Assembly: GCA_964555675.1 (NCBI GenBank) | Contig: CAZKTU010000006.1 | Location: 993-64,992, forward strand | Source of the DNA: an uncultured Oscillochloris sp. | GTDB lineage: Bacteria > Chloroflexota > Chloroflexia > Chloroflexales > Chloroflexaceae | Length of the DNA stretch: 64,000 bases | Direction of reading: 5' to 3' | Shown: in pieces, positions 26,488-59,372 of the stretch | How positions within the stretch are numbered: position 1 is the first letter of the stretch | Layout of the letters: each line of letters opens with the position of its first letter | The notes under the pieces: generated by a model | What the model was told of the DNA's origin: nothing | Database searches by the model: none | The model's input: the letters and a program-made list of their open reading frames with translations, nothing else | Program-made: the position numbers and the translations under genes

Positions 26488-29400
26488 TATGGCCCTAATT
26501 CTATGAGCAGTTTGCGCGCATCGCCGGCCCAGGGGCCGGCGGGCGCAAGCTGGAGGTAGCTCTCGAGGGCGGCCGTGGCCCGCGCGGCGTCGCCGGTGCG
26601 GGCGAAGAGCCGCCCGAGCTGGTAGTAGGGGTCGGGCGCCCGCGAGTCGGCGGCGATGGCCTGGCTGAGGGCGATCTCGGCCTTGTCCAGCTGGCCCCAG
26701 TCGATCAGGCCGGCGCCCAGTTTGTTCCAGTTGGCCGCCGAGGGCTCGGCCTGGGCCGCGAGCATAAAGGCCTCCTCGGCCTCGTCATAGCGGCCCGCCT
26801 CGGCCAGAATATCGCCCCACAGGTGCAGCACGCCGATGTCGCGCGGGTTGGCCCGCGCCGCCGGCTCGAGCACCGCCGCCGCCTCGGCCAGACGCCCTTG
26901 CGCGCGGTAGCGCTCGGCCAAGCCGAAGGCCGTGGGGCCGTCGGTCGGGTTGGCCCTGTTGGCCTCCTCGAACTCGCTGAGGCCGGCCGGCGGCTCGCCC
27001 AAGGGCAGCGGTCTGGGCTGCTGCTGCTCGGCCGCCGCGAAGTCGAAGGGGTCAGGGCGGGCATAGTCGGCCGGCACGCCCGTCACGGCGTAGATCTGGG
27101 CGCCCGGGGCCTCGAAGACCGGCTGCAGGTAGGTGCCGCGCATCTGCTCGAACTTCGCCAGCCCCGCCGCCGGGTAGACCGCTCGCTCGACCCCGCCCAC
27201 ATAGACATAGTCGACCCCGTAGCGGGCCAGGAAGCGCAGGGCGGTCTCGATATCAGCGCTGCGGTAGAACGCGTCCACATCGGCGTCGCGCCGCGCGGCT
27301 GCGTCGGCGGCCCGCTGCTCGTTGACGTGTAGGGCGCTGACCACGGTCGGCAGGCCCGTGTTGGCGGCGATGCGGATGCCGTAGCCCCTGTAGAAGAACA
27401 GGTTCGACTGCACGACCACGGGCGTGCCCTTGATCGTGTCGTTGAGCCACTTGATCGCGGCGGCATCGCCCCGCAGGTCGATCATCACCGTGCCCATGCC
27501 CGGCTCGCACCCGCCGAAGGCCGCGCAGTCATACGCAAATTCGGTCTGCTCCATGAAGGCCAGGCCGTCGAGGGTCGGACCGGTGTTCACGGGGAAGCGG
27601 TTGCTGATCCGCGAAGGCACCGCCGCCAGCAGGTAGAGCGCCGCCAGGATCGCCGGCAGGGCCATGGCCGCCAGGCCCGCCCACTGGGCCCGGGCGCCCC
27701 CCAGGCGGTGCAGGCCGCGCAGCAGGGTCGGCAGGCTGGCCGCCGCAGCCAGGGCCAGCAGCACCCAGACCTGCAGCCCGAACTTGAAGACGGTGTTCAT
27801 GCGGTACCAGTCGCCGCCGGCCAGGTGATCCTTGATGTAGATCAGCTCGATGCCGAGCGAGACCGCCCAGCCGACCCAGGCCATGAGTAAGGCGAACCAG
27901 ATCGGCGCGCCCAGGGCGCGGCGCGGCAACAGGGCCAGCCCCGCGATCAGCAGCGCGGCCAGCACCAGGCGCAGCCCGAGGGCCGGGGCGAGGGCGGCCA
28001 CGCCAAGGGCGCCTACGGCCGCCAGGGCCAGCCACAGGTTCGGCCCCGCCAGCGGCGCGCTCCTGATCCCCAAGGCGGCGGCCGGCCGCCCACTTGTGGC
28101 GCCCTTGCGCCTGCTCGCGCGCCAGATGGCCCCGCCGAGCGCCGGCAGCAGCACCGCCGCGAACACCCCGTAGATCAGCAGGTAGTCCCGCAGTAGGGTG
28201 CCGTCGGCCCACTCGACCCTGCCGATGCCGCCGACCGGCGCCCAGTAGCGGTCGAAGAAGGGCGCAAAGAGGGCCAGCCCGCCCAGCCCTATGCCCAGCG
28301 CCAGCAGGGCGGCCTGCGTCAGCCCGCCCCACGGGATGCTCGCAAAGCCCTTTGCCGCGCCGCGAGGCCTGCGCCAGGCCGCGCCCAGCATGGTCAGGCC
28401 CATCAGCAGCCCGTAGGTCGGGAAGTCCCACGAGTTGGTCACAGCCAGTGTGCCCAGCGACAGGGCCAGCAGCAGGGGCGCGGCGCGCCGTAGGGGCCGC
28501 GCCGCCCGCGCCACCAGGCTGTAGCAGAGCGCCGCCACCAGGATGGTGATCGGCAGGGCGATCATGTGGGGGTGCAGGTCGGCGAAGAGGAAGGTGAAGG
28601 CCGGGAACTCGTTGATCGTGTTCGGGATGACCCGGCTCGGCCCGATGTACCAGTCGCCCAGGCGCTCGCCGAGGCCTTGCAGCCCGCCGTCGCCCAGGGC
28701 CGTCGCCACCGCGCCGAAGCCCCGCGACGAGCCCGCCGCGAAGAAGGCCGTCAGGTTGCCCGCCAGCCCGACCAGCCCCGCGGCCAGCAGCCCGTAGCGC
28801 CCTCGCCCGGTCATCTGCCGCACCAGGGCGAAGGCCCCCGCCAGGGTCAGGCCGAAGGCCGTCGCCACCGCCAGGTTGAAGCCCACCGCCGGCGCGATGC
28901 CCGTAGCCTTGATCGGCAGCGACATCAGGTACAGGCCATAGTAGTAGTAGTTGATGTAGCCGCCGCTGAAGAAGGGGTCGTAGGGCGGCATCACCGGGCT
29001 GCGCAGGATGGCGTTGAGGAAGCCGAACTCCATCGGCTTCTCGCCGCCCCAGACGGGGTGCCACAGGTCGGGGTTGAGCGCCCGCACCAGGGCCAGGGCC
29101 GCAAACCCCGCCAGGAACACCGCCTCGCCCCAGAGCACGCTCCGCCCCTTGGCGCGCAGGCCGTCGGCCAGGGCCATCAGGCCCGCCATGATCGGTTGCG
29201 CTGCCCGCTCGTCGCGAGCACCCTCGGCGAGCGTCTGCTCCTCGGCGTCGCTCGTCGGTCCCTGCGCGGTGCTCCCAGGCTCCTGCTCGGCCGCCCGGCG
29301 CCCCAGCCGCCACAGGATCCCGGCGTTGATCGCCATCACGATGAGCAGCCCGCCCAGCAGGCCCCAGCCGTCGTAGCGCCAGAGCCCCAGGCTCGTCGGC

Positions 29401-32400
29401 AGCCACACGGCGTAGCCCAGCAGCAACAGCCCGATCAGCCTCGCCCAGACGGCCCCGCCATCGCGCCACCCGCCGAACACGGCGTAGGCTGCGGGCAGCC
29501 CCAGCAGACTCATTGCGTAGAAGAAGGCCAGCCAGAACAGCGTCGAGAGCAACGAGCTATCGCGGATCAGGCTGTTCCAGGCGTACTCGTCCACAGCCGG
29601 CAGCTCGTTCACCGGCCGGTCGAGCATCAGCGGCGGCGGCGTGTCGAGCTCGGGCGCGACCACGGGCAGGTCGCTCGTCAGCATGCGCGGCGTGTCTGGT
29701 TCGATCACCCGGTAGATCGCCGTCTGACCCTGCTGGAAGACCCGCTCGAGCGTCCCCTCGCCCGCCATGGCCTCGAACTTTGCGATACCCAGCGGGTCGT
29801 AGGTGCTGCGCTCGACGCCGCCCACGTAGACATACGCCACGCCGTACTGGCGCAGCAGCTCGCGGGCCGTGCCCGCGTCGGGCGTATTGTAGATCGTGGC
29901 GATGCTCTGCTGGCGATTGGCGATCGTCGGCCCCGCGCCCACGACGTTGCGCTGCTGGATCTGGTGCCACTCCCAGCCGAGTAGCGTCGGCAGCCCCGTG
30001 TTGGTCGCCACGCGCCCCGCCCACTGGTACGAGGGTAGGTGGGCTTCGAGGATCACCGGCGTGCCGCTCACTTCGCGCTGCAGCCAGTCGATCGCCGCCG
30101 CGTCCTCGTCGAGCGAGAAGGGCTGGCCCTGGGCCGCGGCGCTCACCGCGCTCATGTAGGCCGCCCCGTCGAGCCCGCGCGGCGCGCTGGCGACCCAGCG
30201 GTCGCCCGCCCGGGCCGGGGTCGCCGTCAGCGGGTAGACCAGGGCCGCCGCCGCCAGCAGGGCCAGCCCGCCCCGCACCAGGTAGCGCGCGCGCCCTGTG
30301 AGCGACCACAGCCCCGGCAGCAGGGCCGCCAAGCCCAGGGCGAAGAGGGTCCAGGCGTGCAGCCCGAACTTGAAGACCGTGTTCATGCGCCCGATGTCGC
30401 CCTTGACCGCCACCAGCTCGACCATGGCCGTCAGGCCCAGGGCCGCCGCCAGCCAGAGCCCCGGCAACAACGCCGCCAGGGGCGCCCGTCGCATGCGCCA
30501 GACGAGCCAGGCCGCGCCCGCCAGGCTCGGCAGCAGCAGCACGATCGCCGGCCAGCCCAGGGCCACGCCCGCCAGGTAGACCAGGCCGAAGGCCCCGGCC
30601 GCCGCGATGGCCACGCTGGGCCCGACCAGGCGCCGCACCAGCAGCAGGCCGAGCGTGGCGGCGATCAGCAGCCAGTGGCCATAGAGCTGGGTCAGCTCCC
30701 ACATACTTGTGCGCTGGGCCAACAGCAGCTTCGCCCCCAGGGTCGGGGCCAGGCCCTCGATCCACAGCTCGACCCCCGACGACTCGGTGGCGAAGTTCGC
30801 GGTGAAGGGCGCGAAGAGCAGGTTCCCCAGGGCCAGCATCAGCAGGGGCGGCCCGGCCACCAGGGCCAGCCGCCAGGGCCAGCGCAGCCCGCCGCGCCCC
30901 GCCCGCCACCCGGCCCCCGCCATGGTCAGGGCCGCCAGGCCCACGAAGGTCGGGTAGTCCCAGGTGTTGGTCGCCCGGATCGCGCCCGCCAGCAGCCCCA
31001 TCAGCAGGAGGCAGACCGCGGGCCGTACGAAGCGCTCGCCGAGCGACGCGCCCGCGCGCCAGCCGCCGCCCAGCAGCCAGCGGGCGAAAGCGAAGGCCAG
31101 CCCCAGCAGGGCCAGGCTCAGGGGCATGACGATCATATGGGCGTGCAGGTCGCCGAAGAGGAAAGTGAAGAAGGGGAACTCGTTGACCGTGCCGGCCACG
31201 ATCCGCGTCGCGTCCCAGTAGGCCCACTCGCCGCGCCCCTGCGCCCACTGCTCCCAGGCGTAGCCGCTGAGGAACCAGAAGGCCTGGGCCAGGTTGCCCG
31301 CCAGCAGCAGCAGCGCCGGCGCCAGGCCCGCCGCGACCAGGGCGCGACGCTCGCGGGGCGCTGCGTCCCCGTCCCTGCGCGCCGCCATCAGGTTGTAGAC
31401 GACACCCCAGGCCCCCAGGGCGGTGAGCCCGAAGAGGGTGGCCACCGCCAGGTTGTAGGCGATGCTCGGCACAATCGTCGTCAGGTGGGTCAGGGCACCG
31501 ACCAGGACGAAGCCGAAGTAGTAGTAGTTGATGTAGCCGCCCGCGTGCCAGGGGTCGTAGGGCGGGAAGGCCGCGCTGCGCAGCACCGCGTTGAGGAAAG
31601 CCAGCTCCATGGGCTTTTCGCCGCCGCGGGCCGGGTGCCACAGGTCGGGGTTCAGCCAGCGCAGCAGCAGGCCGATCAGCAGGAAACCCAGGAACACCGC
31701 TTCGGCGCCCAGCAGCGCGCCCCGTCGCTCGCGCCCGAACGCGCGCAGCTCGGCCCGATTCAGCCAGGCGGCCGCGGCGCCCACGGCCAGCAGCGGCGCG
31801 GCGCAGAGCCACACAGTCGCCGGCGTGAAGGCCAGCGGGAAGGGCCCCCACCCGATCGCGCCGAGGTTGCCCTGCCCGGGCACGCCCACGTTCGTCCCGA
31901 GGCTGCCCGCCAGCCAGGCCCCGTAGGCCACGCCCAACAGCCCGAGGATCTTGCTCAGGCTGTAGCCGCGGTCGGGCAGCCAGGGCAGCAGCCTGTAGAG
32001 CAGGGCGAAGGTCGCCAGGCCCAGTAGCTGCAGCACGGCCAGCCAGACCACCGGCGCGGCGAGGTTGACCCAACTCGCCCGGTTGAACATGCTCGCCCAG
32101 GTGCCGGCGGCGCTGTAGAGCGGCCACTGGCTGTCGGTCAGGCGCAAGGCCGTCGGGTTGCGGTCGGCGATGCGCACGGGCGACTTATAGACCTCGCCCC
32201 AGAGCGTATCGTCGGTGATCAGGGCCTCGGCTCGCTCGCGCGAGTAGGCCGCGGTCTTCTCGAAGATCAGCACCCGCGGGTGATCGTAGACGTGGAAGGC
32301 CTCTTCGGCGGACTGGTCGGGGATCTCGATGCCCAGGATGCTCGGGTACGAGGTCACCTCGGCGGCCAGCTTGAAGCCCAGTTCGCCGCTGAAGAGGTGG

Positions 32401-34397
32401 TGGTAGTAACGCATCAGGGCCGGGTAGCGCATGCGCAGGCGCGAGGTGCTGTCGTAGACCCGGTTGCTGGTCAGCGTGATATAGTCGGCCCGGTCGAGCT
32501 GGTCGAGCAGCCCCTCTTCGACGTTGCCGTCGGCGCCCAGCGCCCCCACGTATTTACGCGGTTCGTCCTCGGCGTAGGGCGCCGAGCCGATCCCGCGGAA
32601 GGTCGAGTCCCAGGACGCGCTGGTCACCTGCAGCGGCAGCGCGTCGTCCCAGATCTCCGAGATCACATACGAGCCGGGCCGGCCGTGGTCGGCCAGCCAC
32701 TGGGCGGCCATGACCCGCGAGTGGGGCAGCGTGTAGATGCGCGAGAAGGCGTAGGCCCAGCCGAGGGTGGCGATCAGGACGAGGGGCAGGGCCAGGCCGG
32801 CGAGCCGGCGGAGGCGCGGCCAGGCCCCGGGCGCCCGCCGTCGCTCCCACAGCCGGACCAGCCCCCAGGCCCCGAAGATGATCAGGCCGCCGTAGATCGG
32901 CAGCAGGTAGCGCAGCGTGATCGCGAACTGGTTGCCCTGCCAGGCGAAGTAGAAGGCCACCCAGGCGAACAGCACCCAGGCCGGGCTCAGGGGCGGCGCG
33001 TCGGGGCGCGGCCAGAGTAGGCGCCTGAGGCCCGCCAGGGCGAAGGCCGCGAGCCCGGCCCAGGCGGCCAGGCCCAGGGCCGGCCCCATGCCCCAGCGCA
33101 CCATGTTCACCCAGGGGAAGATGTAGGCCGGGCGCCAGACCCACTGTTGCGAGGGTGGGAAGTCGAGTTCGCCGCTCACCAGGCCTTGCACGGCCCCCAG
33201 GTTGGCCAGGAAGCGCGGCTCGGGGCGTACGTCGAGGAAGCCGGCGCCCTGCAAGAAGCCGAGCGTCTCGCTCACCACGGGCGAGTCGGCGCGCGAGCCG
33301 ATGAACGAGTCGGGGGCGAGGGTGCGGAAGCTCAGCAGGGTCAGGGCCCCGGCCAGCACCAGCAGCGGCAGCTCGCGCAGAAAAAAGTGGTCCACCACTG
33401 AGGCCGCGCGGGCCCGGCTGGTCGGCTGCCAGCGGCCGCGCGAGGGCTGGTCGGGGTAGTAGCGGCCCGCTTCCTCGGGCGCAGCGGCCGGCTCGGCGCT
33501 TGCGGCGGCCCGCAGCGCGCGGGCGGCCGCGACCACGGCGGCCACGATCGCGACGCCGCCCAGGGTGGCCAGGGTGATGCGGTTGGCCATGGCCGCGCCG
33601 ATGCTCAGGCCGAGCAGGCTGTAGGCGAGCCAGCCGCCGCCCTGGGCGACGCGCACGGCCCAGTAGAGGCTCAGCAGGCAGAAGAAGGTCGAGAAGATCG
33701 GGTCGACGAAGAAGTGCGACTGCTGGATGTGCATCACGGCCAGGGCTGCCAGCATGGCCGCGACCAGGCCGACGCGCCGGCCGAAGAGGCGGCCCCCGAT
33801 CAGAGAGACCAGCACGATCGAGCCCAGGTCGAAGAGCACGGCTAGGCCGCGCCCCACCTTCTGGATCTCGCCGTAGGTGGTCATGTTGATGCCGTCGGGG
33901 TTGAAAATCCACTGCAGAGGCGTCAGCTTCGGGAAGCTGCGCTCGGGGTTCGGCACGAGGTCGCCGTAGTCGGTGCGCAGATCGTTCGGGCGCGTCGGGT
34001 CGAGGCCGCTGCGTGGCGGGCCGTTGAGACTCCGCACCTCTGTGGGCATGGCCTCGCTGGGGGTCAGGGCGACGGCGACGGCCCGCGTGATCAGCTGGGG
34101 GAAGGGGCCGTAGACATAGAGCGGGAAGCGGTCATAGTTGCGCGGGTTCATCGGCGAGCGGGCCGAGTCGTACAGCTCGCCAGGCCCTGCCGGCAGGCGC
34201 ATCGTCGAGGCGACGTCCGAGAAGAAGCGCTCGTCGGGGTGCTGGCCGGTGCCGGAGTCCCAATCGCTCAGGCTCAGGGTTCGAAAATAGGCCCCGAGAA
34301 GCACGATGCAGGCCAGGAGCAGCCATGGCGCCCAGACGGCCGCCACACGTTTCAGGCCGCCGCTCGCGCCGGGCCCGGAGGGATGTTCGATCTCCAC
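26487..34397 (-). CDS. Giant polytopic membrane protein: GT39/ArnT-like N-terminal region + 2 x Chlor_Arch_YYY (DUF2298) modules + C-terminal TPR repeats
   Basis: Uninterrupted 2636-aa ORF with GTG start. N-region aa 1-760 (nt 32118-34397). Module 1 aa 775-1565 (nt 29703-32075, GGYINYYYFGF). Module 2 aa 1610-2440 (nt 27078-29570, GGYINYYYYGLY). TPR aa 2480-2625 (nt 26523-26960). Confidence 0.85.
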   Translation of the reverse strand: MEIEHPSGPGASGGLKRVAAVWAPWLLLACIVLLGAYFRTLSLSDWDSGTGQHPDERFFSDVASTMRLPAGPGELYDSARSPMNPRNYDRFPLYVYGPFPQLITRAVAVALTPSEAMPTEVRSLNGPPRSGLDPTRPNDLRTDYGDLVPNPERSFPKLTPLQWIFNPDGINMTTYGEIQKVGRGLAVLFDLGSIVLVSLIGGRLFGRRVGLVAAMLAALAVMHIQQSHFFVDPIFSTFFCLLSLYWAVRVAQGGGWLAYSLLGLSIGAAMANRITLATLGGVAIVAAVVAAARALRAAASAEPAAAPEEAGRYYPDQPSRGRWQPTSRARAASVVDHFFLRELPLLVLAGALTLLSFRTLAPDSFIGSRADSPVVSETLGFLQGAGFLDVRPEPRFLANLGAVQGLVSGELDFPPSQQWVWRPAYIFPWVNMVRWGMGPALGLAAWAGLAAFALAGLRRLLWPRPDAPPLSPAWVLFAWVAFYFAWQGNQFAITLRYLLPIYGGLIIFGAWGLVRLWERRRAPGAWPRLRRLAGLALPLVLIATLGWAYAFSRIYTLPHSRVMAAQWLADHGRPGSYVISEIWDDALPLQVTSASWDSTFRGIGSAPYAEDEPRKYVGALGADGNVEEGLLDQLDRADYITLTSNRVYDSTSRLRMRYPALMRYYHHLFSGELGFKLAAEVTSYPSILGIEIPDQSAEEAFHVYDHPRVLIFEKTAAYSRERAEALITDDTLWGEVYKSPVRIADRNPTALRLTDSQWPLYSAAGTWASMFNRASWVNLAAPVVWLAVLQLLGLATFALLYRLLPWLPDRGYSLSKILGLLGVAYGAWLAGSLGTNVGVPGQGNLGAIGWGPFPLAFTPATVWLCAAPLLAVGAAAAWLNRAELRAFGRERRGALLGAEAVFLGFLLIGLLLRWLNPDLWHPARGGEKPMELAFLNAVLRSAAFPPYDPWHAGGYINYYYFGFVLVGALTHLTTIVPSIAYNLAVATLFGLTALGAWGVVYNLMAARRDGDAAPRERRALVAAGLAPALLLLAGNLAQAFWFLSGYAWEQWAQGRGEWAYWDATRIVAGTVNEFPFFTFLFGDLHAHMIVMPLSLALLGLAFAFARWLLGGGWRAGASLGERFVRPAVCLLLMGLLAGAIRATNTWDYPTFVGLAALTMAGAGWRAGRGGLRWPWRLALVAGPPLLMLALGNLLFAPFTANFATESSGVELWIEGLAPTLGAKLLLAQRTSMWELTQLYGHWLLIAATLGLLLVRRLVGPSVAIAAAGAFGLVYLAGVALGWPAIVLLLPSLAGAAWLVWRMRRAPLAALLPGLWLAAALGLTAMVELVAVKGDIGRMNTVFKFGLHAWTLFALGLAALLPGLWSLTGRARYLVRGGLALLAAAALVYPLTATPARAGDRWVASAPRGLDGAAYMSAVSAAAQGQPFSLDEDAAAIDWLQREVSGTPVILEAHLPSYQWAGRVATNTGLPTLLGWEWHQIQQRNVVGAGPTIANRQQSIATIYNTPDAGTARELLRQYGVAYVYVGGVERSTYDPLGIAKFEAMAGEGTLERVFQQGQTAIYRVIEPDTPRMLTSDLPVVAPELDTPPPLMLDRPVNELPAVDEYAWNSLIRDSSLLSTLFWLAFFYAMSLLGLPAAYAVFGGWRDGGAVWARLIGLLLLGYAVWLPTSLGLWRYDGWGLLGGLLIVMAINAGILWRLGRRAAEQEPGSTAQGPTSDAEEQTLAEGARDERAAQPIMAGLMALADGLRAKGRSVLWGEAVFLAGFAALALVRALNPDLWHPVWGGEKPMEFGFLNAILRSPVMPPYDPFFSGGYINYYYYGLYLMSLPIKATGIAPAVGFNLAVATAFGLTLAGAFALVRQMTGRGRYGLLAAGLVGLAGNLTAFFAAGSSRGFGAVATALGDGGLQGLGERLGDWYIGPSRVIPNTINEFPAFTFLFADLHPHMIALPITILVAALCYSLVARAARPLRRAAPLLLALSLGTLAVTNSWDFPTYGLLMGLTMLGAAWRRPRGAAKGFASIPWGGLTQAALLALGIGLGGLALFAPFFDRYWAPVGGIGRVEWADGTLLRDYLLIYGVFAAVLLPALGGAIWRASRRKGATSGRPAAALGIRSAPLAGPNLWLALAAVGALGVAALAPALGLRLVLAALLIAGLALLPRRALGAPIWFALLMAWVGWAVSLGIELIYIKDHLAGGDWYRMNTVFKFGLQVWVLLALAAAASLPTLLRGLHRLGGARAQWAGLAAMALPAILAALYLLAAVPSRISNRFPVNTGPTLDGLAFMEQTEFAYDCAAFGGCEPGMGTVMIDLRGDAAAIKWLNDTIKGTPVVVQSNLFFYRGYGIRIAANTGLPTVVSALHVNEQRAADAAARRDADVDAFYRSADIETALRFLARYGVDYVYVGGVERAVYPAAGLAKFEQMRGTYLQPVFEAPGAQIYAVTGVPADYARPDPFDFAAAEQQQPRPLPLGEPPAGLSEFEEANRANPTDGPTAFGLAERYRAQGRLAEAAAVLEPAARANPRDIGVLHLWGDILAEAGRYDEAEEAFMLAAQAEPSAANWNKLGAGLIDWGQLDKAEIALSQAIAADSRAPDPYYQLGRLFARTGDAARATAALESYLQLAPAGPWAGDARKLLIELGP

Positions 34398-36825: not shown

Positions 36826-37680
36826 ATGGCTCTGGTTGACGTGCTTATCCCCACCTGCGACCGCCCGACCGGCCTGGCGATCGTGCTCGCCGGCCTCCTC
36901 GGCCAGACCTTCACCGACTTCGACGTGGTGATCTCCGACCAGAGCCATGGCCGTGACCCTTTGCAGAGCGTCGAGATCCGCACCCTCGTCAAGGCCCTCG
37001 AGTGGCACGGCCATAGGGTCAGCCTCCACCGGCACCTGCCGCGGCGCGGACTGGCCGAGCAGCGCCACTTTCTGCTGAGCCAGAGTGCGGCCACCTACGC
37101 CCATTTCATCGACGACGATGTGATCCTCGAGCCGCGGGTCCTCGAGCGCATGGTGCGGGTCATCCAGCAGGAGGGCTGCGGCTTCGTCGGCTGCCCCGCC
37201 GTCAGCCTCGACTACCTGGACGACGAGCGGCCGCACGAGCAGGAGCAGCTCGAGCTCTGGGAGGGCCCGATAAGTCCCGAGCCCTTCGTGCCGGGCAATC
37301 TGCCCTGGCTGCGCCATAAAGTCAATAATGCCGCCACGCCCCTGCACCTCGAGCGGCGCCTGGTGCGTGACGGCGCACCGCTGCGCTACAAGGTCGCCTG
37401 GGTGGGCGGCGCCAATCTGCTCTTCGACCGCCAGAAGCTGCTGAGCGTCGGCGGCTTCGCGTGGTGGCCTCGTCTGCCCGCGGCCCACGCTGGCGAGGAG
37501 GTGGTCGTGCAGTTCCTACTGATCAGCCGCTACGGCGGCTGCGGCCTCCTGCCCACGGGCACCTACCACCTGGGCCTGCCCACCACGGTGACCGAGCGCC
37601 AGCGCAACGCGGTCGAGCTCTTCGGCGAGTTGCTGGCCGAGCTCGGGCCCGCCGAGGTCGAGCGCAGTGTTGGAGGCTAA
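36826..37680 (+). CDS. Family 2 glycosyltransferase
   Basis: VDVLIPTCDRP...FDVVISDQS N-terminal GT-A motif and an FIDDDV (DxD) motif. AGGGGG RBS. Confidence 0.8.
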   Translation: MALVDVLIPTCDRPTGLAIVLAGLLGQTFTDFDVVISDQSHGRDPLQSVEIRTLVKALEWHGHRVSLHRHLPRRGLAEQRHFLLSQSAATYAHFIDDDVILEPRVLERMVRVIQQEGCGFVGCPAVSLDYLDDERPHEQEQLELWEGPISPEPFVPGNLPWLRHKVNNAATPLHLERRLVRDGAPLRYKVAWVGGANLLFDRQKLLSVGGFAWWPRLPAAHAGEEVVVQFLLISRYGGCGLLPTGTYHLGLPTTVTERQRNAVELFGELLAELGPAEVERSVGG

Positions 37681-37692
37681 GGGCATAGTGAA

Positions 37693-37719
37693 GGGGCGGC
37701 GAGAGCACCTCGCCGCCCC
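37693..37719. terminator. 11-bp GC stem-loop between convergent genes
   Basis: GGGGCGGCGAG-agcac-CTCGCCGCCCC, between the GT2 stop (37680) and the repeat-protein stop (37748). Confidence 0.55.
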
Positions 37720-37747
37720 GTGTCTTGGGATCTGCCTGTGGCCCAGG

Positions 37748-40141
37748 CTAGTTGTTGACCGTGAAGCGGATCACCGTAGAGGTGACCGTTCCCTTGGTGG
37801 TGTCCACGGGATAGGCCGTGGCAGTGATCTCCCAGGCTCCGGTCGCCAGGCTGGTGTTCCAGGTCGGGTTGAAGCCACGGCTGCAGGTCGAGGTGCCGCC
37901 GAAGGCGCAGTACTTCGTGCTGCTGCCCGCGTTGACCGTGGTGGTGTAGGTCGTGCCGCTCGGGCTCTTGAAGGTAAAGACCACCTTGCTGATGCCCCGT
38001 GCGCCGCTGGCGACCTCGGGATCGTAGGCTGTCGCCTCGACCCTTGGTGCGTTGCCGCCGCGCGAGGCCGAGCTGTTGTTACTGGGCACATTGACCGTAA
38101 CTACCGGCGTCCCGTCGATGGCGGTCAGGGTGACCGACGACGAACAGGCAAGCGACTGTCCTTGGGTCAGCGTTTGGGCGGTCACCTTATGGGCCGAGTT
38201 GAGGCTACCCGGGCCCAGGTTGCTCAGGGTGAAGCCGGCGCTGCTCCACAGCGTCTTCGCGTTGGTCACAGTTTGGCCAACCATGTTCGGCACGCTACAC
38301 AAGGTCGGCGCGACGCTCATGATCGACGAACAGAGCTGGGACGAGCCCGCGGCCAGGCTCTGGGTCGATACGGTGAACTCGCCCGAGCCGGGCGCGCCCG
38401 TGCCGCGGGTCAGCGCGACCGTGAACTGGTCCTGGGTCCACTTCGTACTGGCGTTGGTGAAGGTCATACCGGCCAGGTTGGGCGTCGTACACATTTGCTC
38501 GGAGGCGGTCGCCGAGCCGTTGTAGACGATCTCGCTGCCCGCGACCGGGTTGGTGGCGCCGATGCGGCGGTTGCCGCCGCCCCAGCTGTTGTTCAGGGTC
38601 GCCGAGCTGCCGCAGGCGTTCTTGAAGGCCTCGCCATTGTCCTTGACGCTATCGTACATCTGGCCGGCCAGGTTGGGCACCGTACAGACCTGCGGTTTGA
38701 CCCACATCGTATCAGTGCAGAGGCGACTCTCGCCGGCGCTGTACTGCTGCGACTTGATCTGGGTGCTGCCCGAGAGATTGAAGGGGTTCTGGAGCGAGCC
38801 GGTAAACTTGGCGCCCGACGCCCCCCAGGCCGTGCCGGCCTGCGAGAACGTCTTGTTGATCATGTCCGGCACGGTACACATATTCGGCTGCACGAACACC
38901 TCGCTCGCGCAGGCGAGCACCGTGCCGGCGGCCGTCAATTGCCCGGTGATCGTGAAGTCGCCCGCGACTGTGGCGGGCTGGCGCAGGTTACTGGTGAAGT
39001 TATTCGGCGCCTGCTTCCACTCGGTTGCGGCCACGCTATAGAGCTTGCCGACCATGTTCGGTACCGTACACATGTTGGGCTGTACGGTCATGGTAGTTCC
39101 GCCGCAGGCCACCTGTTGCCCGGCGGGCAGGCTCTGGGTGCTGATCGGGAAGTCGCTCGGCGTATTGGCCGCCTTCTGGAGGGCGTTGCTGAAGCCGCTG
39201 TTGCTCCAGCTGGTCTGGGCACCAAGGAATTGCGCGCCGACCAGGTTGGGTACGGTACAGGTGTTCGGCTTGACCTCCATCGCCGCCTCGCAGTAGACGA
39301 CCGAGCCCGACGACAGGCTCTGTGTGGCGATGGTGAAGCTATCGGGCATGCCGGCGGCCCGCGTCAGGTTGGCAGCGGGAAAATCGTCGTCCCAGAGGGT
39401 GTTGGCCGAGCCGGTCCCGTTGATGTTAAACACCCTGCCGACCAGATAGGGTACGGTGCACATCTCTGGCTCGACCTGCATGGTCGACTCGCAGTCGATC
39501 GCGCTGCCGCTGGCATACTGCTGGCTAACAATGTTGAAGCTCTCGGTGCTATCGGCGGGGCGCTGCAGGTTGGTTTGCCTGAAGCCGGCCGTGAGCCAGG
39601 CCCCGTCTCGGGCGCTGGCAAAGGCCTGATTGCGCAGATCGGGGACGGCGCACTGCTTGGGGCCGACGGACATGGTTGTCCCACTGCAGACGACCCTGCT
39701 GCCTGCCACCAGCGACTGCGAGCCGATCGGGAAGGTGCTCGACGCATTGGCGGGCTTGCTCAGCGTGCCGGCGCTGAAACCATAGTTCTGCCATTCGGCG
39801 ACGGCGGCATTGTACTGATAGTTGAGCAAGTCAGGCACATCGCACATCGCCGTCACGACGGCCGTGGGGGGGAGTGCCGTGAGCGTGGGTGGGGCCGGGG
39901 GGAGGCGTACGGTCGGCGACGGCCCTGCCGTGGCGGTCGGGTCGTCGGTGATATTGAAGCTGTTGCGCAGCGTAGTGGCCGCGGTCACAACCGATTGGTA
40001 GACAGCGCGCCCCGTACCCTGGGCCAGCATAAAAATCATGACAAGAGTCAGCGCATACTCTACGAGCGACTGACCATGCCTGGCGCTACGACGCGCTCGT
40101 CCTCGAAGGATGGGCTTATGAGGGGATGCTTGCGTACTCAC
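37748..40141 (-). CDS. Repeat protein: Flp/TadE-type prepilin-like N-terminus + nine PASTA-like repeats + C-terminal Ig-like domain
   Basis: GTG start with GGAGG 4 nt upstream. RHG/QSLVEYALTLVMIFMLA matches the G/xxxxEY prepilin motif. Repeats begin at Cys 100, 164, 228, 295, 358, 422, 486, 551 and 615. Confidence 0.75.
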   Translation of the reverse strand: MSTQASPHKPILRGRARRSARHGQSLVEYALTLVMIFMLAQGTGRAVYQSVVTAATTLRNSFNITDDPTATAGPSPTVRLPPAPPTLTALPPTAVVTAMCDVPDLLNYQYNAAVAEWQNYGFSAGTLSKPANASSTFPIGSQSLVAGSRVVCSGTTMSVGPKQCAVPDLRNQAFASARDGAWLTAGFRQTNLQRPADSTESFNIVSQQYASGSAIDCESTMQVEPEMCTVPYLVGRVFNINGTGSANTLWDDDFPAANLTRAAGMPDSFTIATQSLSSGSVVYCEAAMEVKPNTCTVPNLVGAQFLGAQTSWSNSGFSNALQKAANTPSDFPISTQSLPAGQQVACGGTTMTVQPNMCTVPNMVGKLYSVAATEWKQAPNNFTSNLRQPATVAGDFTITGQLTAAGTVLACASEVFVQPNMCTVPDMINKTFSQAGTAWGASGAKFTGSLQNPFNLSGSTQIKSQQYSAGESRLCTDTMWVKPQVCTVPNLAGQMYDSVKDNGEAFKNACGSSATLNNSWGGGNRRIGATNPVAGSEIVYNGSATASEQMCTTPNLAGMTFTNASTKWTQDQFTVALTRGTGAPGSGEFTVSTQSLAAGSSQLCSSIMSVAPTLCSVPNMVGQTVTNAKTLWSSAGFTLSNLGPGSLNSAHKVTAQTLTQGQSLACSSSVTLTAIDGTPVVTVNVPSNNSSASRGGNAPRVEATAYDPEVASGARGISKVVFTFKSPSGTTYTTTVNAGSSTKYCAFGGTSTCSRGFNPTWNTSLATGAWEITATAYPVDTTKGTVTSTVIRFTVNN
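38114..39844 (-). repeat. Nine tandem ~64-codon (about 192-bp) coding repeats
   Basis: Periodic CTVPNLVG...QSL.AG...C...M.V.P units (periods 63-67 aa), diverged at the DNA level. Confidence 0.85.
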
Positions 40142-40364
40142 GCTGCCTCCGCGGGTTGGTTGGATGGATCTAGTGGTCGAGAGAAAAATGAGTGCGATGA
40201 AGGACCGACGAGATCTGGCTGTGATGGCTGGGGAGTTGCGCTGAGTTTGGGTCGATGGCCCTCCTTGCGCCCTTGATAAAGCGCAGACACACGACTACAA
40301 GCTACAGTATACGGCGGGCGGCATACGGATGCGTAACAAGCTCACAGCACTGGTGTGAGGGAGA

Positions 40365-44815: not shown

Positions 44816-45997
44816 TTATGTGAGGGCGGCGAGTGTATGCAGCGCGATCATGCGCTCCTCGTCGGTCGGGATGACGTAGGCGGCGACCTTACTGCCTGGG
44901 GCGCTGATGCGCGGGCCGTGCTGCTCGTTGGCGGTCGGGTCCAGCTCGAGGCCGAGCCAGGCCAGGCCGCGGCAGACGCGTTCGCGGACGCCCCTGGCGT
45001 TCTCGCCGATGCCCGCGGTGAAGACCAGGCCGTCGATGCCGCCCATCGAGGCGGCGAGGGCGCCGACCTCGCGCACGATCCTGAAGACGAAGTAGTCGAT
45101 CGCCTCGGCGGCCCGCGGGTCATCGCTGGCCTCGAGGTTGCGCATATCGTTGCTGATGCCCGAGATACCCAGCAGGCCCGAGCGCTTGTAGAGCAACTCC
45201 TCGATCTGCTTGGCGCCCATGCCCTTCTCTTGCATCAGGTAGAGCAGCACGCCGGGGTCGATCTGCCCCGAGCGGGTGCCCATGGGCAGGCCGTCGAGGG
45301 CGGTGAAGCCCATGGTGCTGTCGACGCTGCGCCCGCCGCTGATCGCGCACATGCTGGCCCCGTTGCCTAGATGGGCGACCACGACCTTCCCGGCCGCAAT
45401 CTCGGGGGCCGCGCTCTGCATCGCCCGGGCGATATACTCGTACGAGAGGCCGTGGAAGCCGTAGCGGCGCACGCCCTCGGCGTAGAACTCGCCGGGCAGC
45501 CCGTAGATGTCGGCGACGCGGGGGTGGCTGCGGTGGAAGGCGGTGTCGAAGCAGGCCACATTAGGCACGCCGGCCAGGAAGTCCATGGTGGCGCCGATGC
45601 CGGCCAGGTTCGCGGGCTGGTGCAGGGGCGCGAGGGTGACGAAGGCCTCGAGGTCGCGCAGCACGGTATCATCGATCACGGTCGGGGCGCTGTACTTCGG
45701 GCCGCCGTGGACCACCCGGTGTCCGACCCCGATCAGCCCCGCCTCGGGCAGTTGCGGGTCGAGCCAGGCGGCCAGCTGCTCGAGGGCGTAGGCGTGGCCC
45801 TTGCCGAGGGGCGGGTCCTCCCAGGCGGCCTCGTGGACGACCTCGTCGGCGCCGTCCTTGACCTTGAAGCGCGGCCTGGTGCCGATGCCCTCGATCTGCC
45901 CGCTGAAGCGTACCTGCAGCTCGCCACCCGCCTGATCGAAGACCGTAAACTTGATGCTGGACGACCCGGCGTTCAGCACAAGGATCGTTTTGCTCAC
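44816..45997 (-). CDS. ackA: Acetate kinase
   Basis: ILVLNAGSSSIKF, GHRVVHGG and FTAGIGEN motifs. GTG start with AAGGAG upstream. Confidence 0.92.
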   Translation of the reverse strand: MSKTILVLNAGSSSIKFTVFDQAGGELQVRFSGQIEGIGTRPRFKVKDGADEVVHEAAWEDPPLGKGHAYALEQLAAWLDPQLPEAGLIGVGHRVVHGGPKYSAPTVIDDTVLRDLEAFVTLAPLHQPANLAGIGATMDFLAGVPNVACFDTAFHRSHPRVADIYGLPGEFYAEGVRRYGFHGLSYEYIARAMQSAAPEIAAGKVVVAHLGNGASMCAISGGRSVDSTMGFTALDGLPMGTRSGQIDPGVLLYLMQEKGMGAKQIEELLYKRSGLLGISGISNDMRNLEASDDPRAAEAIDYFVFRIVREVGALAASMGGIDGLVFTAGIGENARGVRERVCRGLAWLGLELDPTANEQHGPRISAPGSKVAAYVIPTDEERMIALHTLAALT

Positions 45998-46008
45998 AGG
46001 GACGCTCC

Positions 46009-46986
46009 TTAGGCTGTTGTCACCAGCTTGGCGCGGCGCGCGTGGACGAGCAGGGTGGCGACCGCGCAGGAGGCCAGGCGGGCGCGCACGCTGTCGGCGC
46101 GGCTGGTCAGGATGATCGGCACGCGGGCGCCCAGCACGATCCCGGCCGCCTCGGCGCGGGCCAGGAAGGTCAGCTGCTTGGCCAGGATGTTGCCGGCCTC
46201 GAGGTCGGGCACCAGGAGGATGTCGGCCTGCCCGGCGACGGGCGAGACGATCTTCTTGGTCCGGGCGGCCTCCATGCTGATCGCGTTGTCGAGCGCCAGG
46301 GGGCCGTCGAGCAGGCCGCCGGTGATCTGCCCGCGGTCCGCCATTTTGCAGAGGGCCGCGGCCTCAATCGTCGAAGGGATCTCGGGGGTGACTGTCTCGA
46401 CCGCCGAGAGAATGGCCACTTTGGGCTGCTTAATGCGCAGGACCTGGGCCAAATCGATCGCGTTCTGGCAGATATCGGCCTTGGCCTTCAGGTCGGGTGC
46501 GATGTTGACGGCGCCGTCGGTCACGATCAACGGCTTGGGGTAGGTCGGCACGTCCATAATGAAGCAGTGGCTGATGCGCCTGTTGGTGCGCAGGCCGGTC
46601 ACCTTGTTGACCACCTCGGCCAGCAGCTCGTCGGTGTGCAGGCTGCCCTTCATCAGGGCCTCGGCCTCGCCCTGCCGCACCAACTCGACCGACCTGGCCG
46701 CCGCGGCATGGCTGTGCTCGACGTCGATGATCTGGTAGGGCGTCAGGTCGATGCCCTCCTTCTCGGCCACGGCGCGGATGCGCTGCTGCGGGCCGACCAG
46801 GATGGGCGTGATCAGGCCGGCCTTGGCCGCATCGATCGCGCCGGTGAGCGAAACATCGTCACAGGGGTGGACCACGGCCACCCTGATCGGCTCGAGGGCT
46901 TTGCAGGCCTCGAGTAGCATCTCGTAGCCGTTGAAGGCGTTCTCGTCCGAGGCAGTGCCGTCCCGTTTGTCGCCGCTCGTTACCAT
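46009..46986 (-). CDS. pta: Phosphate acetyl/butyryl-transferase (short PTA_PTB type)
   Basis: PTA_PTB-like sequence (IRVAVVHPCD, LMKGSLHTDELL, AILSAVE, ADILLVPDLEAGN). I prefer the ATG at 46986 (GGAGGAG 7 nt upstream). It lies 11 nt upstream of ackA. Confidence 0.85.
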   Translation of the reverse strand: MVTSGDKRDGTASDENAFNGYEMLLEACKALEPIRVAVVHPCDDVSLTGAIDAAKAGLITPILVGPQQRIRAVAEKEGIDLTPYQIIDVEHSHAAAARSVELVRQGEAEALMKGSLHTDELLAEVVNKVTGLRTNRRISHCFIMDVPTYPKPLIVTDGAVNIAPDLKAKADICQNAIDLAQVLRIKQPKVAILSAVETVTPEIPSTIEAAALCKMADRGQITGGLLDGPLALDNAISMEAARTKKIVSPVAGQADILLVPDLEAGNILAKQLTFLARAEAAGIVLGARVPIILTSRADSVRARLASCAVATLLVHARRAKLVTTA

Positions 46987-47191
46987 GATCGTACTCCTCC
47001 TCGCCTCTCCGCTGCTCACACGGGGCGGCCTGGCCGCGTTGGGTCAGTGTCGGTGCGTGATGCGCGCCACTCTGGCGCACACTATTGTGGGCCCCTAGGT
47101 GGTGACTGTCAAGGCGCGAAGCCGGTCACCATGGCGCAACCATTTCAGCTACAATTGGCCCCTGGAGGCTTGATGCAAGGAGGCACGCCTG

Positions 47192-57950: not shown

Positions 57951-59372
57951 CTAGAAAATGATCTGGTCGGCGTTGACCTGCTCGAGGCCGGCCCAGGGGC
58001 TGCGCACCTCGCCGCTGCTGACGCGGCGCCCGAGGCGCAGGGCGAGCAGCAGGACAGTGGCGAGCACCAGGAGGGTGAGGGAGGCGGCGTAGACCGCGGT
58101 GTAGCCGAGGGCGACATCGCCGGTGCGCTGCTGCACGAGGTCGCGGGTGAGCCCGCCGCCGATGGTGCTGAGGCCCTGGGCGAGGGCCTGGGTGATGCCC
58201 CACAGGCCGATGAAGAGGCCGGCGTGGTTGCGGTCGACCAGGCTCATTACCAGGGCCAGGGCGCCGACGATAAAGAGGCCGCGACCGGCGCCGATCATCG
58301 TGACACCCCACTGGAAGGGCGCAACCAGGGTGACATCGCTCGCGAGGGTGACGGCGAGAAAGCCGGCCACGCCGAGGAGGCAGCCCGCGCTGATCAGCAG
58401 CACCGCCGAGCGCCCACGCCAGAGGAGGATGGCGGCCAGGGCGATGCCGACGAGCATGCCGACGCCCCAGAGGGCGGTGAGCCTGGTGGTTTCGGTAATG
58501 CTCATGCCGAGGACCTGACCGCCGTACGGCTCGAGCAGGACATCGTGGGTGGCGAAGCCGAGGGTGGCCAGGAAGAGCACGCCGAAGAGGTTGCGCAGGG
58601 GGGCCTGGGCGGCGAGCAGCCGGATCTGCTGGCCCAGAGTCTCGCGCACGGTGATCGGCTCGGCCACATCCTCGAGGTCGCCGTTGGGCTTCAGACGCTC
58701 CTGGCCGTACATGGCCACGAAGGTCAGGGCGATGAAGATCACGGCCGAGCCCTGCATAACCTGGATGAGGCGGAGGTGGCTGTAGCGCAGCAGCAGCTGG
58801 CCCATAACGATCGAGCTGACGATGGTGCCGAGGACGAGCATGATCCAGAGGACGCCGAGGACGCGGCCGCGCTCGCGGGCGGGGGTGATGTCGCTGACGG
58901 TGGCGAGGTAGATCGTCTCGACGATATTCACGCCGACGCCATAGGCCAAAAAGATCAGACTGCAGATCAGCATAGCGAGGGGGAAGCCAAGGGCCCCGTC
59001 GCCGCTGAGCAGGATGAGCGAGAAGGGGGCGGTCGCCAGGCCGCCGTAGGTGAGCATAGCGCCAAGGACGAGGTAGGGGGTGCGCCAGTTGCCGGCGGCG
59101 CGGGCCACGTCCGAGCGGAAGCCGATCAGGGCGCGGGCGGGCGAGACGAAGTAGTGGAGGGCGATCAAGAAGCCGACGGCCACGGCCGGGATGCGCAGCT
59201 CGTCGATAAGGACGCGGTTGAGGGTGCCGGTGATTGGGGCGAGCGAGACGCCCATGCCGAACTGAAACAGCCCGAGGCGCAGCACACGCAGCCAGCGGCT
59301 AGCATCGGGGTGGCTGTTGAGCCAGCGGCGCGCCCCGCGCAGCGGCCCTTTGATGGCGTTCCCGGCGGCCAT
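57951..59372 (-). CDS. MFS transporter of the BCD/PucC (LhaA) family
   Basis: [33 protein letters not shown] is characteristic of PucC/LhaA-type proteins. About 12 TM helices. AAGGAG RBS. Confidence 0.85.

Follow-up and report, generated by a model that had tools for sequence, protein, structure and literature searches.

The window, by which we mean the whole 64,000-nt stretch of DNA from an uncultured Oscillochloris sp. that was analyzed, contains an ORF for a 797-aa protein that begins like a pilin and continues into a long series of Cys-bracketed repeats. This raises the questions of whether the N-terminus is indeed that of a pilin, what kinds of domains follow it, and what a protein joining the two could be doing at the cell surface.

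Coding frame and surroundings of the gene

The ORF for the 797-aa protein (37748..40141, minus strand, GTG start) is a genuine coding sequence. GC3 is 0.85 in this frame versus 0.52 in an antisense ORF of 869 aa (37667-40276, plus strand), which identifies the minus-strand frame as the coding one; the antisense ORF is a high-GC artifact. The GTG start and the GGAGG located 4 nt upstream, both pointed out in an earlier reading of the sequence alone (hereafter, the sequence-only reading), are borne out (Table 1), and the homologs share an MxxQxxP... N-terminal beginning with the 797-aa protein, which supports GTG as the start codon. A scan for a promoter and a terminator of the gene gave nothing above chance.

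A Pfam scan of approximately 39 ORFs in the window (ORFs shorter than 150 aa and several gaps between ORFs lay outside the scan) revealed no T2SSE, T2SSF, Peptidase_A24, TadE, or Flp genes, and a six-frame motif search of the window found no second pilin-like ORF with G/xxxxE[YF]. Thus, the sequence-only reading was right, for the ORFs scanned, that the window has no tad or cpa genes. Likewise, no tad, cpa, or prepilin-peptidase genes were found within 10 kb of homologs in about ten genomic contexts (including L001-L003, L005, L008, and L012, the latter an 8.7-kb contig of a near-identical strain), and ackA-pta were the only neighbors that recurred across these contexts. The gene therefore lies neither in nor beside a tad locus, in the window or in the homolog contexts. 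Since linkage to a tad locus is not universal among Flp genes, the missing tad neighbors weigh little against an identity as Flp. Rho encoded in the window is 86% identical to that of an Oscillochloridaceae bacterium and 83% identical to that of Ca. Chloroploca.

Table 1. Features of the gene for the 797-aa protein, with nucleotide positions in the window and residue numbers in the protein
Feature	Residues	Nucleotides	Strand	Remarks
Shine-Dalgarno sequence GGAGG		40146..40150	-	4 nt 5' of the GTG at 40141; read from the sequence
Basic leader peptide (MSTQASPHKPILRGRARRSARHG)	1-23	40073..40141	-	Ends at invariant Gly-1; predicted class III prepilin-peptidase site after G23
Flp-pilin module (QSLVEYALTLVMIFMLAQGTGRAVYQSVVTAATTLRNSFNIT)	24-65	39947..40072	-	E+5/Y+6, hydrophobic helix, conserved G42 and R59
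Pro/Thr-rich linker (DDPTATAGPSPTVRLPPAPPTLTALPPTAVVTAM)	66-99	39845..39946	-	Unusually well conserved; pLDDT <50
PASTA repeats 1-2	100-163, 164-227	39461..39844	-	Constant membrane-proximal pair, C1...C~53; pLDDT 84-92
PASTA repeats 3-8	228-294, 295-357, 358-421, 422-485, 486-550, 551-614	38300..39460	-	Variable middle
Repeat 7	486-550	38492-38686	-	Subtype with second Cys at position ~25
PASTA repeat 9	615-676	38114..38299	-	Final PASTA before the Ig-like tail
Ig/Fn3-like β-sandwich	677-797	37751..38113	-	Conserved Cys pair C745, C753
Stop codon		37748..37750	-	Convergent GT2 glycosyltransferase gene ends at 37680, 68 nt off

The N-terminal module and its linker

Flp pilins (PF04964), such as Flp1 of A. 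actinomycetemcomitans and PilA of C. crescentus, have a basic leader running to a Gly, a G/xxxxEY motif, and a hydrophobic helix of ~20 aa with a conserved Gly, followed by an amphipathic C-terminal half, and the N-terminus of the 797-aa protein is alike in all these respects. The processing motif G/XXXXEY is present as RHG/QSLVEYALTLVMIFMLA, and none of G23, Q24, S25, V27, E28, Y29, and L31 varies among the 14 intact family N-termini that were inspected and aligned. The segment GQSxVEY[AG]L is unchanged, although overall the N-terminal modules share just 36 to 65% identity. AF2 modeling predicts helices at residues 26-39 and 45-61, with pLDDT values below 50 for the N-terminus.

The Flp_Fap model of Pfam did not match the N-terminus at E <= 10 (cut-off 32.2 bits), nor the scanned family members at E <= 0.01-0.1. 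The only direct Pfam match of the N-terminus was to TadE, below threshold (13.5 bits, E 0.084, versus a cut-off of 22.9 bits) and restricted to profile positions 1-18, and NCBIfam tests for a relation to Flp_Fap or TadE were negative or sub-threshold. With single-sequence signals this weak, the link to Flp becomes visible only at the profile level. An exhaustive search of 1.84 billion proteins with a profile built on the first 66 residues gave 521 matches with the family's 7 clusters on top. The matches below these were mostly proteins of 50-80 aa that covered nearly the whole profile (positions ~10-62), with E values down to 3e-9; Flp_Fap matches 66 of the 68 such neighbors that were scanned and TadE one of the 68, and IMG annotates the neighbor proteins as “Flp pilus assembly pilin Flp.” These Flp pilins align without gaps with the family from their Gly-1, which coincides with G23, to their C-termini, which coincide with the start of the family's linker. 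Judged by these sequence comparisons, the first ~65 residues share homology with mature Flp pilins in their entirety and resemble Flp rather than TadE. Where the sequence-only reading had proposed a Flp/TadE-type prepilin leader, the G/xxxxEY motif stands, but the homologous region is a whole module rather than a leader and its kinship is with Flp; as for the Pfam families it named, neither Flp_Fap nor TadE reached its cut-off, and the homology emerged from the family profile.

In size, the protein departs from these pilins. Flp pilins comprise 40-70 aa and lack a globular domain (PMC11067988, PMC6916266), whereas the 797-aa protein runs on for 730 aa, misses the Pfam threshold, and is encoded outside a tad locus. 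Even a size range of about 40-90 aa without a globular domain does not accommodate 797 aa with ten globular domains following the module. The linker that connects the module to these domains has invariant G73, P76, P81, P82, T86, T88, L90, and P91 in a 16-sequence alignment. A candidate sortase signal in the linker (LPPTA) was rejected, as it is not conserved (LPAQP and LPNSG in relatives) and is not C-terminal.

The PASTA array and the C-terminal domain

Nine repeats follow the linker, each opening with C-x-[VT]-P-x-[LMY], at residues 100, 164, 228, 295, 358, 422, 486, 551, and 615. Their lengths range from 62 to 67 aa, and every one of them contains exactly two Cys (9/9); the position given for them by the sequence-only reading, nt 38114-39844, is exact, and their proposed identity as PASTA domains is confirmed. 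The whole protein scores 70.4 bits with Pfam PASTA (E 1.2e-19, cut-off 23.2), and the homologs score 52-80 bits. Taken singly, repeat 9 scores 27.1 bits and repeats 1, 2, 5, 7, and 8 score 12-15 bits (14.9 and 12.5 bits for repeats 1 and 2), and repeats 3, 4, and 6 have no Pfam PASTA match at E <= 10. In the AF2 model, residues 100-676 have pLDDT values of 79-93 and most repeats show the strand-helix-strand-strand-strand order of the PASTA fold. The best PDB matches of this model in Foldseek are PknB (5e12, 2kui), S. aureus 3m9g and 3py9, and the PASTA domains of PBP1/PBP2x (7o4c, 7o61, 2z2l, 5oau), with E values down to 8e-10.

Comparison of the repeats across the family shows a constant beginning, a variable middle, and a recurrent end. 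Repeats 1-2 match PknB PASTA1-2 (2kud) in sequence (E 6e-4), and in 15 of 16 clustered arrays the leading subtype is r1 and the next is r2 or d; P0015 alone begins with d, its first repeat having fallen outside the length filter. The middle repeats have undergone cassette shuffling and duplication among homologs. Subtype r9 comes last in the query and in the five homologs that carry it (P0002, P0005, P0006, P0007, and P0009). Repeat 7 had been considered degenerate; instead, it belongs to a conserved subtype that many homologs share, with a PASTA score of 14.6 bits and pLDDT values of 87-91. Exactly two Cys are present in 127 of the 134 family repeats. The second Cys is at position ~25 rather than ~52 in 13 repeats, and both positions are never occupied together. 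The PASTA rod is probably stapled by disulfides.

The array is joined to neither a kinase nor a transpeptidase. As the sequence-only reading had noted, kinase and PBP domains are missing: Pfam finds PASTA only, and the best NCBIfam match, PknB_PASTA_kin (61 bits, cut-off 450), covers the ectodomain part only. The PASTA kinases (M. tuberculosis PknB, S. aureus PrkC/Stk1, and B. subtilis PrkC; structures 5e12, 2kui, 3m9g, and 3py9) likewise have a linear extracellular PASTA array, but the 797-aa protein lacks the kinase and a conventional TM helix, and compared with their 3-4 repeats it has nine (up to 16 in relatives), each with its Cys pair. Class B PBPs (S. pneumoniae PBP2x and S. aureus PBP1) share the PASTA fold, whereas the 797-aa protein has no transpeptidase domain. 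Binding of peptidoglycan fragments is not a property of all PASTA domains, and many fail to bind muropeptides.

The tail (residues 677-797) matches no Pfam family. Its AF2 model has eight strands (pLDDT 82, pTM 0.77), and the Foldseek matches are Ig/Fn3-like, in agreement with the β-sandwich that had been suspected here. The B1 domain of CelAly (9kvu) matches with E 5.7e-5 and TM 0.72; further matches include a porphyran-binding CBM (8wae), RbmA, adhesin extender repeats, and the Fn3 domain of CbhA. No specific match to the Ig domain of PrkC was obtained with Foldseek. Four residues (F, C, C, and W) are invariant among 15 tails, and the domain is doubled in P0005, P0007, and P0017.

Relatives, possible roles, and significance

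The family is small, with 18 sequences in 7 clusters at 50% identity. All named relatives, Chloroflexales MAGs included, belong to the Chloroflexales, mostly to the Oscillochloridaceae (Oscillochloris and Ca. Viridilinea), and the closest match among GTDB species genomes has 57% identity. PASTA copy number in the relatives ranges from 1 to 16, and a minimal form, consisting of the Flp module, a long T/P linker, and one Cys-paired PASTA domain, occurs in two independent sources (L010 and L014). Other fusions of a Flp module carry He_PIG, LamG-like, or MAM-like passengers, and these modular Flp proteins likewise fall below the Flp_Fap cut-off, at 21-27 bits. In two relatives (P0001 and P0018), automatic public gene calls have dropped the leader. 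The sequence-only reading had called the architecture unusual, which fits both the size of the family and the fact that we found no published description. A Flp pilin combined with a PASTA array and an Ig-like end is a rare, undescribed design, the parts of which are known and the combination of which is new.

The closest parallel in logic is offered by modular type IV pilins, in which an adhesive domain is grafted onto a pilin, as in the T4aP subunits PilB (with vWA) and PilC (with a lectin) of Streptococcus sanguinis; according to reviews, pilins of this kind are common and come in hundreds of architectures (PMC10191384, PMC6916266). The 797-aa protein follows the same plan, with a class III signal and a pilin module preceding a non-pilin graft, but its module is Flp-type, not T4a. 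In PilB and PilC, the carrier is a T4a pilin whose Phe+1 is N-methylated and which includes a globular pilin domain, whereas here the PASTA graft is carried by nothing but a Tad-system Flp helix. Neither a modular pilin built on a Flp helix nor PASTA as a graft was found described in the literature.

We lean toward the view that the protein is a modular type IVc (Flp/Tad) pilin, cut by a TadV-type peptidase and showing a PASTA rod and an Ig domain; it probably presents a glycan- or cell-wall-binding rod, either on pili or at the surface of the cell. Very likely, a TadV/CpaA-type prepilin peptidase would cut after G23, leaving a helix in the cytoplasmic membrane that starts with Q24. There seems to be an even chance that the Tad machinery of the hosts would then build the Flp module into a pilus, whether at its tip or as a subunit of low abundance. 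[quoted passage not shown] We would put just short of even the chance that a stiff PASTA rod of a few tens of nm, with its Ig-like/CBM-like end, attaches to a ligand of the glycan or peptidoglycan type, such as one on neighboring filaments or surfaces, in the service of adhesion, aggregation, or pilus-driven gliding; reach and valency would depend on the number of repeats, which is 1 to 16 in relatives. We know of no experimental precedent in Tad pili for a passenger of ~75 kDa on a 42-aa pilin.

The pilin-type segment might instead be a membrane anchor, cleaved or not, that takes no part in filament assembly, with the linker reaching the peptidoglycan and the PASTA rod acting as a wall scaffold, a spacer (“ruler”), or a sensor resembling a kinase-less PknB/PrkC ectodomain. 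We consider this conceivable but unlikely. It is in line with the order of the domains, a PASTA array and then an Ig-like domain, which is also that of 3py9, one of the top fold matches and presumably the S. aureus PrkC ectodomain with its terminal Ig-like domain. It also agrees with the ectodomain-only match to a PASTA kinase model, with the location of the gene in no pilus operon among the contexts examined, and with conservation, which is highest in the linker and the first two repeats, as an envelope-proximal role would predict. Such a role, however, would need neither the invariance of E+5/Y+6 nor homology to the full mature Flp pilin; no kinase or signaling gene adjoins the gene conservedly; and a periplasm-like space seems unable to accommodate 9-16 PASTA domains, given the length of a single one. 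In Ca. Viridilinea, a thin peptidoglycan lies beneath an outer-membrane-like layer, so that a membrane-tethered PASTA array would face peptidoglycan, in keeping with an anchor (PMC7332563).

That the protein is a TadE/TadF-like minor pseudopilin, which primes or caps Tad pilus assembly and bears the PASTA array as a secondary decoration, appears improbable. TadE, TadF, and TadG exceed Flp in size and are part of the Tad system, and TadE and TadF have the same peptidase motif (PMC10191384); TadE was also the sole direct Pfam match of the N-terminus. That match, however, stays below its cut-off and within the first 18 profile positions, the nearest neighbors are Flp pilins, and the EY motif and the lack of a Pro after the helix start are as in Flp. 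Moreover, past residue 65 the protein has the linker and PASTA domains in place of a TadE body, and V. mediisalina already has tadEEG (PMC7332563). Finally, the N-terminus could be an ordinary Sec signal-anchor or signal peptide of a secreted or membrane-tethered PASTA protein, its likeness to G/xxxxEY being coincidental. A possible signal peptidase I site (GRA, residues 44-46) and the missing leaders in the two public gene calls would fit, but the family does not preserve such a site behind the hydrophobic segment (GRA, VRV, MRT, and IGT). The invariant GQSxVEY[AG]L in divergent N-termini, the charged Glu within the hydrophobic segment, and the significant matches to bona fide Flp pilins in the large-scale profile search make this reading highly improbable.

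Ca. Viridilinea mediisalina, the source of homolog L008, has pili, and its only pilus genes are tad genes (rcpC-tadZABC, tadEEG, and flp), a quoted list in which a prepilin peptidase does not figure (PMC7332563). It is possible, if doubtful, that the Flp module is polymerized into Tad pili or into a fiber of its own, so that gliding multicellular Chloroflexales would carry PASTA-studded or PASTA-tipped pili or fibrils and grip neighboring filaments or surfaces with them. Such pili or fibrils might contribute to the ~72-nm fibrillar coat of Ca. Viridilinea, which, among three Chloroflexales imaged, was seen only on this organism (PMC7332563).

The architecture is invisible in databases, as the Flp module is below the Pfam cut-off and the leader has been lost in two public gene calls; the number of modular Flp pilins may thus be underestimated. 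Among type IV pilins, those of the Flp type are the smallest and have been described as bare helices, and specific adhesion by Tad pili is poorly understood. If our reading is true, a natural Flp pilin with a 730-aa passenger would mean that modular pilins are within the capacity of the Tad system, as they are of type IVa systems, and the 797-aa protein would provide a test case for the cargo tolerance of the Tad machinery. To our knowledge, PASTA domains have so far been met almost exclusively in wall-synthesis kinases and PBPs, as their sensor or targeting modules; a pilin-borne array with a Cys pair per domain and 1 to 16 copies points to a different use, in adhesion, reach, or wall tethering. 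If polymerized, the protein would be the first functional modular Flp pilin, and its PASTA array the first to act outside the envelope. Its hosts are poorly studied multicellular gliding phototrophs, with no pilus genes reported other than Tad genes.

The gene, the N-terminal module, and the linker

The PASTA-pilin gene is a 797-aa ORF (37748–40141, minus strand) that opens with GTG, with GGAGG lying 4 nt upstream. This start, first read off the sequence, is supported by homologs, which open with the same MxxQxxP... N-terminus. The window has a GC content of 69.8%, which seems above the values of cultured Oscillochloridaceae, and a long antisense ORF covers the gene (see the table). Because third-codon-position GC is 0.85 in the minus-strand frame versus 0.52 in the antisense ORF, we take the minus-strand frame as the real gene and rejected the antisense ORF as a high-GC artefact.

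Coordinates of features in the window and in related loci
Feature	Location	Strand	Remarks
Pro/Thr-rich linker, aa 66–99	39845–39946	(-)	disordered in the AlphaFold2 model
Antisense ORF, 869 aa	37667–40276	(+)	spans the whole PASTA-pilin gene
ackA-pta	44819–47043	(-)	4.7 kb upstream of the PASTA-pilin gene, same strand
PucC-family protein (bacteriochlorophyll-related MFS)	57954–59381	(-)	window
Minimal relative	L010:304–1374	(+)	Chloroflexales MAG ELA448
Minimal relative	L014, motif at 382		JGI contig Ga0208376_1003266
Modular Flp protein, 1520 aa	L009:9971–14533	(+)	Pleurocapsa sp. MAG CAZZJW010000046.1

The sequence-only reading had proposed a prepilin leader of the Flp/TadE type. Scanned as a single sequence, the N-terminus gave a sub-threshold Pfam match to TadE (13.5 bits, profile positions 1–18 only) and none to Flp_Fap; kinship with Flp emerged from profile searching. 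An exhaustive search with a profile of residues 1–66 against 1.84 billion cluster representatives (E ≤ 1e-3) returned 521 matches, the first seven being the PASTA-pilin family itself. The remainder of the best 150 are mostly proteins of 50–80 aa that cover nearly the full profile, with E-values down to 3e-9, and that IMG labels “Flp pilus assembly pilin Flp.” Pfam recognized Flp_Fap in 66 and TadE in 1 of 68 of these short neighbours. When aligned jointly, family members and Flp pilins show no gaps from the Gly on, and the Flp pilins end approximately where the family's Pro/Thr linker starts. The residues G23-Q-S-x-V-E-Y-x-L, G42, and R59 are invariant in all 14 aligned family N-termini. The proposed leader is thereby strengthened and extended: by homology, the N-terminal module amounts to a complete Flp pilin. 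Cleavage by signal peptidase I behind the hydrophobic segment was also considered and rejected, as the family does not conserve such a site.

In the Tad pilus of Caulobacter, the mature pilin consists of one helix of 45 aa in which Glu+5 bonds the neighbour's backbone and Tyr+6 at the filament core, whereas the C-terminal end faces outward (PMC11067988). Based on these contacts, the invariant E28 and Y29 would be the assembly-critical pair, and the outward C-terminus would make a C-terminal passenger topologically compatible with a filament. The linker that follows has eight invariant residues, G73, P76, P81, P82, T86, T88, L90, and P91 (GPSPT.RLPP.PPTLT.LP), and this conservation exceeds the needs of a passive spacer; the linker may help to span the envelope or may carry modifications.

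The PASTA array and the terminal domain

Nine tandem repeats of 62–67 aa begin at aa 100, 164, 228, 295, 358, 422, 486, 551, and 615, and each opens with C-x-[VT]-P-x-[LMY]; the array coordinates given from sequence are exact. The whole protein matches Pfam PASTA (PF03793) with 70.4 bits (E 1.2e-19; cut-off 23.2) and no other Pfam family. Among single repeats, only repeat 9 passes the cut-off (27.1 bits); repeats 1, 2, 5, 7, and 8 score 12–15 bits, and repeats 3, 4, and 6 gave no match. AlphaFold2, run on an alignment of 16 family sequences, gave a model with a mean pLDDT of 81 (79–93 in the repeat region) and a strand-helix-strand-strand-strand order in most repeats. The best Foldseek match in the PDB is Mycobacterium tuberculosis PknB PASTA 2–4 (5e12, E 8e-10), followed by 2kui, Staphylococcus aureus 3m9g and 3py9, PBP1 (7o4c and 7o61), and PBP2x, and the sole sequence-level PDB match is PknB PASTA1–2. 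By Pfam, model, and Foldseek, the nine repeats are PASTA domains, as their PASTA-like signature had suggested. Neither Pfam nor NCBIfam finds a kinase or transpeptidase domain in the protein, in line with the sequence-only reading; the NCBIfam PASTA-kinase model scores 61 bits versus a cut-off of 450, its match being confined to the model's ectodomain portion.

The added cysteine pair noted earlier is borne out by counting: each of the nine repeats has exactly two Cys, and two more, C745 and C753, lie in the tail. When 15 homologs are counted together with the query, 127 of 134 repeats contain exactly two Cys. One occupies repeat position 1 in every case, and the second lies either 11–12 residues before the repeat end (100 repeats) or at position ~25 (13 repeats), never at both. 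Since the partner position alternates and the total is always two, this pattern argues for one intradomain disulfide per repeat. The repeat at aa 486–550, previously thought degenerate, is instead a position-25 variant with its pair at C486 and C510, and belongs to a conserved subtype (..YDDVKDNGEAFK..NRRIG..P.AG) common to many homologs.

Residues 677–797 match no Pfam family. Modelled separately, they form an eight-stranded β-sandwich (pLDDT 82, pTM 0.77), the fold that had been anticipated for them. In the PDB, they most resemble domain B1 of CelAly (9kvu, E 5.7e-5, TM 0.72), a porphyran-binding CBM (8wae), RbmA of the Vibrio cholerae matrix, extender repeats of adhesins (6xi3), and CbhA Fn3-like modules. 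From these structural matches, the tail is, as modelled, a generic Ig/Fn3-like domain of the type seen in adhesins and carbohydrate-active proteins. One F, two C, and one W are invariant across 15 aligned tails; some relatives have two tails, others none.

Family, genomic context, and visibility in databases

Only 18 relatives were found in a set of 5.8 billion proteins, and Pfam sees only PASTA in them; there are 7 clusters in a 50%-identity library, 6 family loci in GTDB species genomes, and 2–3 in JGI metagenomes. The architecture is rare, as first supposed. Clustering of the repeats of 16 arrays into subtypes indicated that subtype r1 heads 15 arrays, the exception, P0015, opening with subtype d only since the length filter excluded its first repeat. 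The second place is taken by r2 or its variant d, and r9 is the final PASTA in all tail-bearing arrays that contain it. The middle is shuffled, and duplication of an r6-a-a-r8 cassette enlarges the proteins with 13–16 repeats. Repeat number in the main family is 4–16. A minimal relative, obtained from two independent sources (L010 and L014), consists of the Flp module, a low-complexity, T/P/A/N-rich linker of ~230 aa with TNTAT-type repeats, and a single C-terminal PASTA domain bearing a Cys pair.

Among named hosts are Ca. Viridilinea halotolerans and Ca. V. mediisalina, the others being Oscillochloris MAGs, an Oscillochloridaceae MAG, and a Chloroflexales MAG; genomes of Chloroflexus and Roseiflexus yielded no copy. 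The window's Rho shares 86% identity with an Oscillochloridaceae bacterium, 83% with Ca. Chloroploca, and 77–81% with Chloroflexus, and since PucC is also encoded in the window, the host is a Chloroflexales phototroph. In Ca. V. mediisalina, which has pili, the pilus genes are Tad only (rcpC-tadZABC, tadEEG, and flp), in a list that names no prepilin peptidase (PMC7332563). As had been stated for tad and cpa, Pfam detected no tad, cpa, or peptidase gene among the 39 window ORFs scanned, and a six-frame motif search found no second Flp/TadE-like ORF; in the homolog contexts examined, there was none of these genes within 10 kb. Only one neighbour recurs, namely ackA, which lies immediately upstream of four homologs (P0005, P0007, P0009, and the L005 protein), with pta ahead of it in at least two of the contexts. 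In the window, three plus-strand genes for a G3P dehydrogenase-like protein, an FAD-linked oxidase, and topoisomerase IB lie between ackA-pta and the PASTA-pilin gene, and no functional link is apparent. Elsewhere in the window, two adjacent giant membrane proteins are encoded at 23986–34397 (minus strand), namely a 933-aa stop-to-stop ORF matching DUF2298 and a 2636-aa ORF with a twice-repeated NPDLWHPxxGGEKPME...INYYY motif and a TPR-like end region.

The profile matches include further Flp-module fusions (P0085, P0129, P0091, P0142, P0029, and P0022), carrying He_PIG Ig repeats (P0129) or a LamG/3-keto-disaccharide-hydrolase-like region (P0085), or being smaller or Cys-rich-tailed. These and the Pleurocapsa fusion described next apparently go unremarked in the literature consulted. 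The six go unannotated because they score 21–27 bits versus the Flp_Fap cut-off of 32.2. Opening with an Flp-type leader and its module (SAGQSLVEYALIIVMV...), the Pleurocapsa ORF in L009 continues through a Pro/Thr linker into a large passenger that includes an InhA-like MAM domain; it is a giant cyanobacterial modular Flp pilin. Moreover, two public gene calls begin past the leader. In P0001 (Logan, 99.9% identical), the called start corresponds to Met35 of the window protein (region 40039–40141). For P0018 (NCBI CJ255_13000, Ca. V. mediisalina, 494 aa), an ATG lying 36 codons upstream of the called start restores MKTQ...AVRGQSIVEYALTL and the true 530-aa ORF (L008:4661–6253). Sub-threshold Flp modules and leader-less gene calls thus keep the architecture hidden in databases.

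Pilus subunit or membrane-anchored array

Modular pilins, in which an adhesive domain is grafted onto a pilin module, are established in type IVa pili, as in Streptococcus sanguinis PilB and PilC, and reviews describe them as widespread (PMC10191384, PMC6916266). The carrier here is, in contrast, an Flp (Tad) module, and whereas Tad/Flp pilins are described as being without any globular domain (PMC11067988), this one carries a PASTA array and an Ig-like tail. We found no literature uniting PASTA domains, pilins, and Tad. The parts of the Flp-PASTA-Ig protein are known; their combination is genuine, rare, and undescribed.

Given its domain order and homologies, we lean toward reading the protein as a modular Flp pilin. 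The main competing explanation, which we regard as distinctly less probable, is that the pilin module is a membrane anchor only and that the array acts in the wall, much as the PrkC ectodomain would without its kinase. Chloroflexales peptidoglycan contains L-ornithine. Such an anchor agrees with the absence of operon linkage to pilus genes and with how the Ca. Viridilinea envelope is laid out, but less well with the conservation of the assembly residues. Less likely than anchoring by the Flp module are a TadE-like role, which is improbable, and a plain signal anchor, which is very unlikely.

As a modular pilin, the protein would be cut after G23 by a TadV-type peptidase, and the Tad machinery would take up its Flp helix as a minor or tip subunit. 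The PASTA rod and Ig-like end domain would then be displayed and bind a glycan or peptidoglycan-type ligand, and such binding may serve adhesion, aggregation, or gliding.
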